Below are positions 27,988-29,033 of a stretch of 64,000 nucleotides of DNA, in pieces; the stretch's first letter is position 1, and each line of letters begins with the position of its first letter. A program made the position numbers and the translations under genes. The notes beneath the pieces were generated by a model. It had not been told where the DNA came from. It did no database searches and saw only the letters and a program-made list of their open reading frames with translations. Source of the DNA: a virus; the UHGV virus genome UHGV-0326727. One strand, 5' to 3'.

Positions 27988-28428
27988 TTAGAAAGGTTTT
28001 CTACGTTGCTTGTTAATGTTAGCTTTCATAGCAGCTAAGTGGTTTTGCTGTTCAATCAGTCGTGAGCGTTCTTGATGGCTAAGTTCCATAGTGTTCACAT
28101 TCTCAATAGCTTGAGTGGCTTGCTTTAAAGCTCGACCAATCTTACCAGACATTTTACGTTTTGCAATAGTTGCTTGATGTTTAGGTTCAACCACACGATA
28201 ACCAACACCCATTGAAGCAACCAGATAAATCTTCTCTTCTTTAAGAAGCTTCTCAATAAACTTCTCAAGTCGGTTTAGACGTGTAAGTGCATAAGCCTTC
28301 ATTTCATCTTCGTACTTAACAATGTCGCCTTGATAAGTTGGCTTCATAATACCTAAGAAGGTGTCCATCTCAGAATGTGATACAGTGTCACCGTAACTAA
28401 ACTTTGCTGCTAATGCTTTTGTATTCAT
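27988..28428 (-). CDS. Hypothetical protein (146 aa), second gene of repeat-flanked cassette
   Basis: ORF; start overlaps stop region of upstream gene; basic C-terminus. Confidence 0.45.
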   Translation of the reverse strand: MNTKALAAKFSYGDTVSHSEMDTFLGIMKPTYQGDIVKYEDEMKAYALTRLNRLEKFIEKLLKEEKIYLVASMGVGYRVVEPKHQATIAKRKMSGKIGRALKQATQAIENVNTMELSHQERSRLIEQQNHLAAMKANINKQRRKPF

Positions 28429-28430
28429 AA

Positions 28431-29033
28431 TTAAACGTTACCTTCTGAAATAACTTCTACAGAAAAACGACCAAAGCGTGGACGCCAATCACCTACACCA
28501 CAAAGGTTACCAGCATTTTCCAGAACCATCAGGAGTTCCTCTCGTGTGATTTGCTCTTCATCGAACATCAAACCGAACTCTACAGACCAGTCACGGAAGA
28601 TTGGACGGTAGCTCATAACTCGTGCTGTACCAATCTTAACAGACTTAGCATAGATAAAGTCTGGATTCTTAGCAAGTTCTTGTGGGTTTGCTGGACAGTT
28701 CTTGATAGTCATTGGGAAGACTACATCTGTCAGCATAATGGCTCGGTCAATTACCTTACCAAGTTTGTTGAGTTTTGCACCAGACTTGATGCAAGCCTCA
28801 ATCATCTCACCGTTCATAACAAAACCTAGTTGCTCATCGTAGTAACAAGAAGTTACCAGTTGGCTTTCTGCTAAGAGCGCATAGTCTTCGTCAGTCTTTT
28901 TACGTTTACTGGACAGAGACTTGTGATATTTTGTCAGAGGATTTAACGGGTCTGACAACGTATCGTTATGGCTCAGGAAAGGACGAGTACCAGTGATTTT
29001 GATATTTAACAGTTTCATAGCATTTAGCTCCAC
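28431..29033 (-). CDS. Hypothetical protein (200 aa), first gene of repeat-flanked cassette
   Basis: ORF preceded (on - strand) by repeat array B; no recognisable motif. Confidence 0.45.

Follow-up and report, generated by a model that had tools for sequence, protein, structure and literature searches.

VIPR (Viral Interference Programmable Repeat) systems, a recently reported form of RNA-guided DNA recognition with a non-contiguous code, were described in 2026 in two preprints from the Doudna lab (bioRxiv 10.64898/2026.04.26.720920 and 10.64898/2026.04.26.720927). Their central protein, Vipr, is a minimal RAMP protein of ~20 kDa, and its guides, the vrRNAs, comprise 9-16 YNNGG repeats and a structured tail (in the SUSP1 clade, a pseudoknot). 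In SUSP1, one Vipr protomer binds each GGYNN pentamer, which results in a helical filament with the 3′ pseudoknot as its cap. Protein pockets take up the flipped GGY bases, and the exposed NN bases pair with double-stranded DNA, skipping every third target base and forming an R-loop triplex; there is no nuclease, and DNA binding blocks transcription. The vrRNAs of ~100 nt, their co-purification with Vipr and silencing by the ribonucleoprotein were shown for SUSP1 and P. fulva, and GFP silencing as well as phage defence by VIPR were reported. A second gene, vap1, encodes a predicted DNA-binding protein which enhances restriction/protection. Guides of the SUSP1 clade are mostly aimed at a satellite phage, and the authors propose that VIPR is older than CRISPR (clustered regularly interspaced short palindromic repeats) (all from 10.64898/2026.04.26.720920,.720927). 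Here, we analysed a stretch of 64,000 nucleotides from the UHGV virus genome UHGV-0326727, to which we refer as the window, and find that positions 27644-29440 on its minus strand very probably constitute a complete type II VIPR locus in the order promoter, two vrRNA genes, vipr, vap1 and two further vrRNA genes.

This identification turns two “hypothetical proteins” and four unexplained repeat arrays into one functional locus and yields predictions of the satellite genes that are silenced by this phage. The window comes from a Felix O1-like phage. The region shares 99.6% identity with two Escherichia phages, PHB11 and pEP20, and 92-96% with many Felix O1-like members of the genus Felixounavirus. 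In GenBank records of these relatives, both genes are labelled “hypothetical proteins” and the repeats appear as “DR_4” (phage wV8) or as predicted promoters and terminators (ASO1B). The locus itself is not novel, since the 98%-identical system of SUSP1 is already in the literature, and it is no new kind of system. Our additions are modest: predicted targets for three of the four guides, an in silico reproduction of the rule by which one base is skipped, the finding that the trio of vipr, vap1 and array is kept at 42-49% Vipr identity, and an orphan vrRNA in Felix O1.

The comparison with SUSP1 extends over the whole locus. Vipr and vap1 are each 98% identical to their SUSP1 counterparts, both loci are flanked by the DNA ligase gene on one side and the next early gene on the other, and both combine a promoter, leader hairpins, pseudoknot tails and the GGYNN architecture with four vrRNAs. 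They differ in the layout of the vrRNAs, which is 1 + 3 in SUSP1 and 2 + 2 here, as in wV8 and ASO1B, as well as in all four NN codes and in a guide of 18 units here. The neighbours of the locus are the DNA ligase gene and small early genes, and the next gene after it is 27599..27216. Its features are as follows:

29413..29440, minus strand: sigma-70-type promoter directly past the DNA ligase stop, with TTGACA (29440..29435), a 16-nt spacer and TATACT (29418..29413)
29346..29426, minus strand: leader with two stable hairpins, before the first repeat tract
29222..29345, minus strand: vrRNA u1, 18 GGYNN units (29345..29256) and the pseudoknot tail GGGTAGTTAGTCTCAGCTACATTAAAATGAGACT (29255..29222); NN code AT AA GC GA CA AA GA TT TT GC GA GC CC AA CC GC AA AT
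29184..29221, minus strand: AU-rich spacer hairpin between vrRNAs u1 and u2
29094..29183, minus strand: vrRNA u2, 11 GGYNN units (29183..29129) and the pseudoknot tail GGGTGGATGGTAGTAGCCACGTTAAAAATCTACCA (29128..29094); NN code CT GT AG TG AT AT CC GT GT AC AT
28431..29018, minus strand: vipr, 195-aa RAMP-fold protein
27988..28428, minus strand: vap1, 146-aa Vipr-accessory protein
27961..27976, minus strand: terminator-like hairpin AGCCTC-TTCG-GAGGCT followed by CCTTTTT, directly past the vap1 stop
27830..27923, minus strand: vrRNA d1, 12 GGYNN units (27923..27864) and a pseudoknot tail identical to that of u1 (27863..27830); NN code GC GC CC TC AG CT AA CT AA TC CA AT
27691..27790, minus strand: vrRNA d2, 13 GGYNN units (27790..27726) and the pseudoknot tail GGAAGGATGGCAGTAGCCTTATAAAAAATCTGCCA (27725..27691); NN code GT AC AA TA AG CA CA CA GA AA AA AA AT
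27644..27690, minus strand: AT-rich palindrome (inverted repeat, 19-nt arms, 89% complementary) followed by a T-run

The 195-aa protein is Vipr, a RAMP-fold, Cas7-like RNA-binding protein. It matches the PDB entry 36pp_D, “SUSP1 Vipr protein”, with 98% identity over 195 residues (E = 1.5e-127), and a profile of the Vipr family matched a single entry among the PDB sequences, again 36pp (E = 4e-80). The SUSP1 residues for which an effect of alanine substitution was reported (K33, R39, K82, R138 and D177) are all identical here, as are the contact residues H17, E71, M72, G87, K88, C173, W178 and R179. The RAMP fold was also found independently of the preprints, since an AlphaFold2 model (predicted local distance difference test, pLDDT, 95.7) retrieved Csm3 and type VII Cas7 subunits as its top 40 Foldseek hits (E = 4e-5 to 1e-3, TM ~0.5; 36pp was not among the hits from the PDB copy used). 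Vipr shares with Csm3 (type III-A) and Cas7 (type VII) an RRM core, a glycine-rich loop and a thumb, and in all of them one protomer covers each periodic RNA segment with bases flipped at regular intervals, whereas sequence identity is only 8-17%. Homology searches retrieved 519 Vipr relatives of ~190 aa from phages, prophages and metagenomes, and a C-terminal glycine-rich motif, which resembles the loop rich in glycine (G-loop) of RAMP proteins, is conserved across 44 homologues.

An earlier annotation of this DNA made from the letters alone (the original prediction) had placed two co-oriented open reading frames (ORFs) here, which are indeed found on the minus strand at 28431..29033 and 27988..28428, 2 nt apart, and had recognised no catalytic or DNA-binding motif in either protein. 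Scans against Pfam, NCBIfam and PADLOC likewise matched no family for Vipr or the vap1 protein, and a PHROGs search of the two returned “unknown function” families only; what had been overlooked is that the larger protein is the RAMP-fold RNA-binding Vipr. The 200-aa ORF assigned to it exists but is the maximal frame, which begins at a GTG at 29033 without a ribosome-binding site. Since the ATG at 29018 is preceded by GGAG 9 nt upstream, and the same methionine starts the solved SUSP1 protein as well as all 44 aligned homologues, this ATG is almost certainly the start of vipr, giving the predicted gene 28431..29018 and a protein of 195 aa.

Despite the shared fold, VIPR differs from class 1 CRISPR effectors in that it lacks a repeat-spacer array, further cas genes and a nuclease, has a period of 5 nt on the RNA with two of every five bases pairing, and reads its target with a 1-nt skip. 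Consistent with this, repeat scans of the locus found no CRISPR repeat-spacer array (repeats of ~23-55 nt; the period here is 5 nt), and no cas genes lie beside vipr. A comparable case in ecological terms is Vibrio phage ICP1, a lytic phage with a complete type I-F CRISPR-Cas system aimed at its own PLE satellite. That system includes adaptation and target degradation, whereas VIPR relies on one RAMP protein and on silencing rather than cutting; to our knowledge, VIPR has no adaptation module. CRISPR interference (CRISPRi) with dCas9 is alike in that programmable, RNA-guided DNA binding represses transcription without cleavage, and differs in that VIPR reportedly needs no protospacer adjacent motif, acts on either strand and uses a non-contiguous code.

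The smaller gene, vap1, follows directly, with its ATG 2 nt past the vipr stop (TAA-TT-ATG) and in the same orientation. Its product is identical to that of SUSP1 vap1, the gene downstream of SUSP1 vipr, at 143 of 146 residues (98%), and its C-terminal tail, described as strongly basic in the original prediction, does end in KANINKQRRKPF. A word-indexed search returned near-identical proteins only, and an exhaustive search was needed to reveal a family of 234 cluster representatives of 145-200 aa with the conserved motif G-Y-x-(I/V)-V-x-P-x-x-Q in a beta hairpin. In a metagenomic phage contig with a Vipr of 49% identity and in Rhodococcus globerulus (42% identity), a gene that overlaps the vipr end gives a match to the profile of vap1 (hhalign 99.8% with E = 2.4e-30 and 97.3% with E = 2.5e-11, respectively), and both loci carry GGYNN arrays beside the genes. 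Because both distant loci keep a vap1-family neighbour together with such arrays, the vipr-vap1-array architecture is conserved well beyond this phage. The original prediction had correctly linked the genes to the repeats; the distant homologues retain the partner gene and the GGYNN arrays, instead of pointing to a housekeeping function in a conserved gene order without repeats. Searches of the vap1 profile against PDB sequences and Pfam found no relative. A single-sequence model (pLDDT 71.6) shows a helix-helix-long helix-beta hairpin-long helices arrangement, and its top Foldseek hits are MarR-like and winged-helix regulators, none significant (best E = 0.06); this modelled likeness is suggestive and no evidence of the fold.

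The arrays on both sides of the gene pair are very probably functional vrRNA (guide RNA) genes of the unit. The original prediction had regarded them as one array on each side that bounded the cassette; the repeats are real, with ACCNNACCNNACCNNACC at ≤1 mismatch occurring 23 times, all in 27728-27780 and 29131-29345, compared to 0.10 expected. However, they form two tracts per side, four in all (29345..29256, 29183..29129, 27923..27864 and 27790..27726), and are RNA genes rather than boundaries. The tracts comprise 54 pentamers (18, 11, 12 and 13 units) that read GGYNN on the transcribed minus strand: position 2 is G and position 3 is T or C in every unit (54/54 each), and positions 4-5 are variable. 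NN codes vary between relatives with GGY kept. The vrRNA u2 is nearly identical to the corresponding vrRNA of wV8, and d2 differs from the copy in phage ASO1B at one NN base. In the ASO1B copy of u1, an internal duplication is seen as two copies of TGTGA TGTTT GGTTT GGTG, and the u1-type tract therefore seems to grow by slippage.

Each tract ends in a tail of 34-35 nt, of which there are three sequence versions here and more in ASO1B and the satellites. All versions fit one H-type pseudoknot of 4 + 8 pairs, with helix 1 paired to 100%. Among seven distinct tails, nine of the 12 pairs show compensatory changes, and the covariation score was matched by none of 500 shuffles; 84.5% of cells are paired, compared to 26-49% after sliding the partners by 1-3 columns. 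A constant (G/T)GTAT unit closes every tract (29256-29260, 29129-29133, 27864-27868 and 27726-27730). Since its AT never matches the predicted targets, it probably belongs to the constant handle rather than to the guide. A scan of the locus with Rfam 15, which holds no vrRNA family, gave a chance hit only (ncr952, E = 0.75).

Short matches to the vrRNA tails were found in 49 Escherichia coli genomes, where they lie inside ~11-kb elements or in degraded remains of them. Genes for a serine recombinase, an HNH endonuclease, and baseplate and tape-measure proteins are found in the intact elements, often together with one for a Dam methylase. The preprint names this satellite family. To decode the guides, each GGY was converted into one wildcard according to the preprint rule, and the resulting pattern was used to scan 15 E. 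coli chromosomal loci (236 kb; handles such as L005 and L016) with complete or degraded satellite copies. The vrRNA d1 matches at 21 of 24 NN positions in the Dam methyltransferase gene of a satellite, with its first 10 units perfect (L016 9891-9926), and at 20/24 in L011; the d1 target scores were reached by 0/300 and 0/200 shuffles. Units 7-17 of u1 (the 3′ 11 units) match 21/22 NN positions in the tape-measure gene, at the same site in four satellites (predicted site L016 3722-3775), and the differences between satellites at this site fall on skipped positions. For d2, 20/26 NN positions match, nine consecutive units perfectly, in a conserved 107-aa ORF at the same site in five satellites (L012 7688-7726 and homologous sites in L005, L006, L007 and L010); this ORF has no Pfam or PHROG match.

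These matches depend on the skip. Local scores at a 1-nt skip are 21 for d1, 19 for u1 and 19 for d2, compared to 10-14 at skips of 0, 2 and 3. Shuffled guides gave a mean local score of 11-12 and a maximum of 14-16 (u1 maximum 16, d2 maximum 15), and 0/200 reached the observed scores of u1, d1 and d2. The base that is skipped coincides with the wobble position of the codon in u1, d1 and u2. The 1-nt-skip rule is thereby reproduced independently in silico with guides other than the four of SUSP1, and u1, d1 and d2 are predicted from these matches to target satellite genes via the 1-nt-skip code. Vipr would polymerise on the GGY motifs of the four vrRNAs, and NN pairing would silence satellite transcription, with three of the four guides directed at the tape-measure, Dam methyltransferase and 107-aa ORF genes of the ~11-kb E. 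coli satellite phage.

Several points weigh against a working locus with these targets. Expression and processing of the vrRNAs, Vipr binding and silencing are assumed for this phage from the 98% identity to SUSP1. The 15 loci are a sample of the ~568 matching E. coli loci, and they hold no perfect full-length target: the best sites match 77-88% of NN positions, compared to the preprint threshold of >80%. Only the 3′ 11 of the 18 units of u1 match, the first six (29316-29345) matching nothing found, and 18 units exceed the preprint range of 9-16. The best site of u2, again in the satellite tape-measure gene, reaches 18/22 NN positions (3/300 shuffles), but its local score is not significant (9/200 shuffles). 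In d2, the skipped base lies at codon position 2 of the 107-aa ORF and not at the wobble position. The first base of the unit is G in 40/54 pentamers and T or A in 14/54 (26%). Exact-pattern scans of IMG/VR returned no perfect target for any of the four guides, and a scan of GTDB genomes for d2 found no match. Two exact metagenome matches to u2 were dismissed as chance by our own estimate of the expectation for 20 specified bases; they show no similarity to satellites or Felix O1-like phages. Finally, parasitism by the satellite was inferred in the preprint from shared tape-measure and baseplate homology (bioRxiv 10.64898/2026.04.26.720920, 10.64898/2026.04.26.720927).

Other explanations have to be judged against this background. 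The repeats could have served a TRAP-like attenuator, with a ring protein on GGU repeats, or acted as Rho-utilisation sites in an antisense RNA through their C-rich plus strand; both ideas were dropped after the match to the solved SUSP1 Vipr structure. Iterons or a replication origin are countered by the covariation of the tails and by the sequence-specific skip-1 matches. A rival reading along the lines of the original prediction takes the two proteins for anti-defence or host-takeover effectors that act on proteins of the host, and the repeats for passive recombination boundaries of a mobile cassette. The variable presence of the cassette in relatives and the failure of Pfam, NCBIfam and PADLOC to match either protein fit this idea, and recombination between repeats probably does explain the loss of the cassette in Felix O1. 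However, the larger protein is the solved Vipr RAMP protein, RNA-level selection on the repeats is apparent from G and Y positions that do not vary and from the covariation of the pseudoknot, and the sequence-specific matches to genes of the satellite arise under the 1-nt-skip rule only. We therefore hardly credit this reading at all, and it is the least probable of the explanations considered here.

Alternatively, the VIPR locus might be used otherwise, either to time the phage's own genes or against other phages or the host chromosome. Neither u2 nor the 5′ third of u1 has an identified target, and in the SUSP1 clade 2/20 guides with an identifiable target map off the satellite and about half of 41 have none (10.64898/2026.04.26.720920,.720927). 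But three guides match the satellite significantly, and a scan for self-targets in the 64-kb window found no site above background for any guide (best NN match 64-69% at a 1-nt skip; local scores of at most 9-11, compared to a null mean of 11-12), so we consider such a use very unlikely. Slightly less likely still is a decaying relic, whose genes and arrays remain recognisable but no longer function in this phage. That 26% of units have a non-G first base, that u1 carries an unmatched 5′ extension and that Felix O1 shows the locus can be lost would all be expected of decay; yet TGT and AGT units occur in the active vrRNAs of SUSP1 as well, the two ORFs are intact and each shows 98% identity to its experimentally active SUSP1 counterpart, with no change at any of the functional residues tested, and promoter, tails and hairpins are intact as well. 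A complete type II VIPR locus aimed at the satellite thus accounts best for the locus.

With respect to the biological role, Felix O1-like phages are the presumed victims of the satellite, and the locus would therefore protect the phage from its own parasite. The predicted targets of the Vipr guides are satellite phage genes and not host defence systems, which speaks against the counter-host-defence or host-takeover role that the original prediction had favoured; its description as an accessory or counter-defence cassette holds partly in spirit but not in mechanism. The satellite family matches 568 of 5,426 complete E. coli genomes, with copies often disrupted by insertion sequence (IS) elements, and uses at least three integration sites: inside yecE (DUF72), beside ymdF-rutG and beside yciI-kch. 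In some satellites, one GGYNN tract of 12-13 units is followed by a covarying pseudoknot tail, with no vipr present (L004 14996-15055, L005 14951-15015 and L014 8516-8575), and solo vrRNAs on satellites are also mentioned in the preprint (bioRxiv 10.64898/2026.04.26.720920, 10.64898/2026.04.26.720927). Since the satellite has no vipr gene, its vrRNA would need the Vipr of the helper phage.

Tblastn searches detected vipr in 130 phage records, of which 118 are ≥90% identical and belong to Felix O1-like phages (Ounavirinae); the 12 distant records include Pseudomonas, Gordonia, Mycobacterium and Listonella phages among others. As ~260 records share the flanking genes, ~45% of the relatives carry the cassette. 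It is absent from Felix O1 and many Salmonella relatives and is accordingly dispensable, in line with the earlier proposal of an accessory cassette in genetic conflict. Felix O1 has, between its ligase gene and ORF204, the same promoter and leader, one array and a d2-type pseudoknot tail, but neither vipr nor vap1. This orphan vrRNA-like tract reads as follows:

L019 1478-1537 (AF320576 ~57758-57817), minus strand: vrRNA-like tract of 11-12 units

Five of 11 units in the orphan have a non-G first base, and its GGY is partly degenerate. It is probably the product of a deletion by recombination between the first and the last vrRNA. Guide-only loci such as this orphan and the solo vrRNAs of the satellites might be functional by relying on Vipr from a relative that co-infects the cell, or by soaking it up like a sponge.

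A further, more speculative idea is that vap1 could represent a novel type of effector that binds DNA and acts on the Vipr R-loop triplex, and that the guide-only loci may be functional. The vap1 family, with its 234 representatives, always lies directly downstream of vipr and lacks a Pfam family or solved relative; we regard the combined idea as unlikely, if far from negligible. If it were true, recognition or stabilisation of the R-loop triplex by vap1 would turn reversible silencing into stronger restriction.

The transcript of vrRNAs, vipr and vap1 probably starts at the sigma-70-type promoter 29413..29440, which matches the consensus at 11/12 positions; SUSP1 and Felix O1 share this element. 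The leader behind it folds with a minimum free energy (MFE) of -29.8 kcal/mol (z = -5.0), which none of 200 shuffles equalled, and its second hairpin, CACUUAAGAAUCUUUAAGAGGGGUUUUUAAGUG, is an element that recurs ahead of tracts u1 and d2. Every tract has a hairpin ahead of it. The spacer hairpin between u1 and u2 (MFE -8.9 kcal/mol for 29184-29222; 9/200 shuffles as good) is weak alone and recurs before d1. The original prediction had placed a terminator beyond the downstream array. A hairpin of this kind is present, but it lies at 27961..27976, directly past the 146-aa gene, and the downstream arrays follow it. SUSP1 conserves this hairpin and nevertheless expresses its downstream vrRNAs; it may attenuate transcription or mark a processing site. 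The palindrome at 27644-27691 is the probable end of the VIPR transcription unit, judging from its inverted repeat and T-run. It surrounds the -35 box TTGACA (27672) of the promoter of the next gene (match 10/12) and could be the VIPR transcript terminator, an operator, or both.

Outside the Felix O1-like phages, the 147-kb record of Staphylococcus phage SA1 (GU169904.1) contains at 91679-92263 a vipr gene 99% identical to the Felix O1-like copy, and this record probably acquired Felix O1-like sequence through mis-assembly or contamination.

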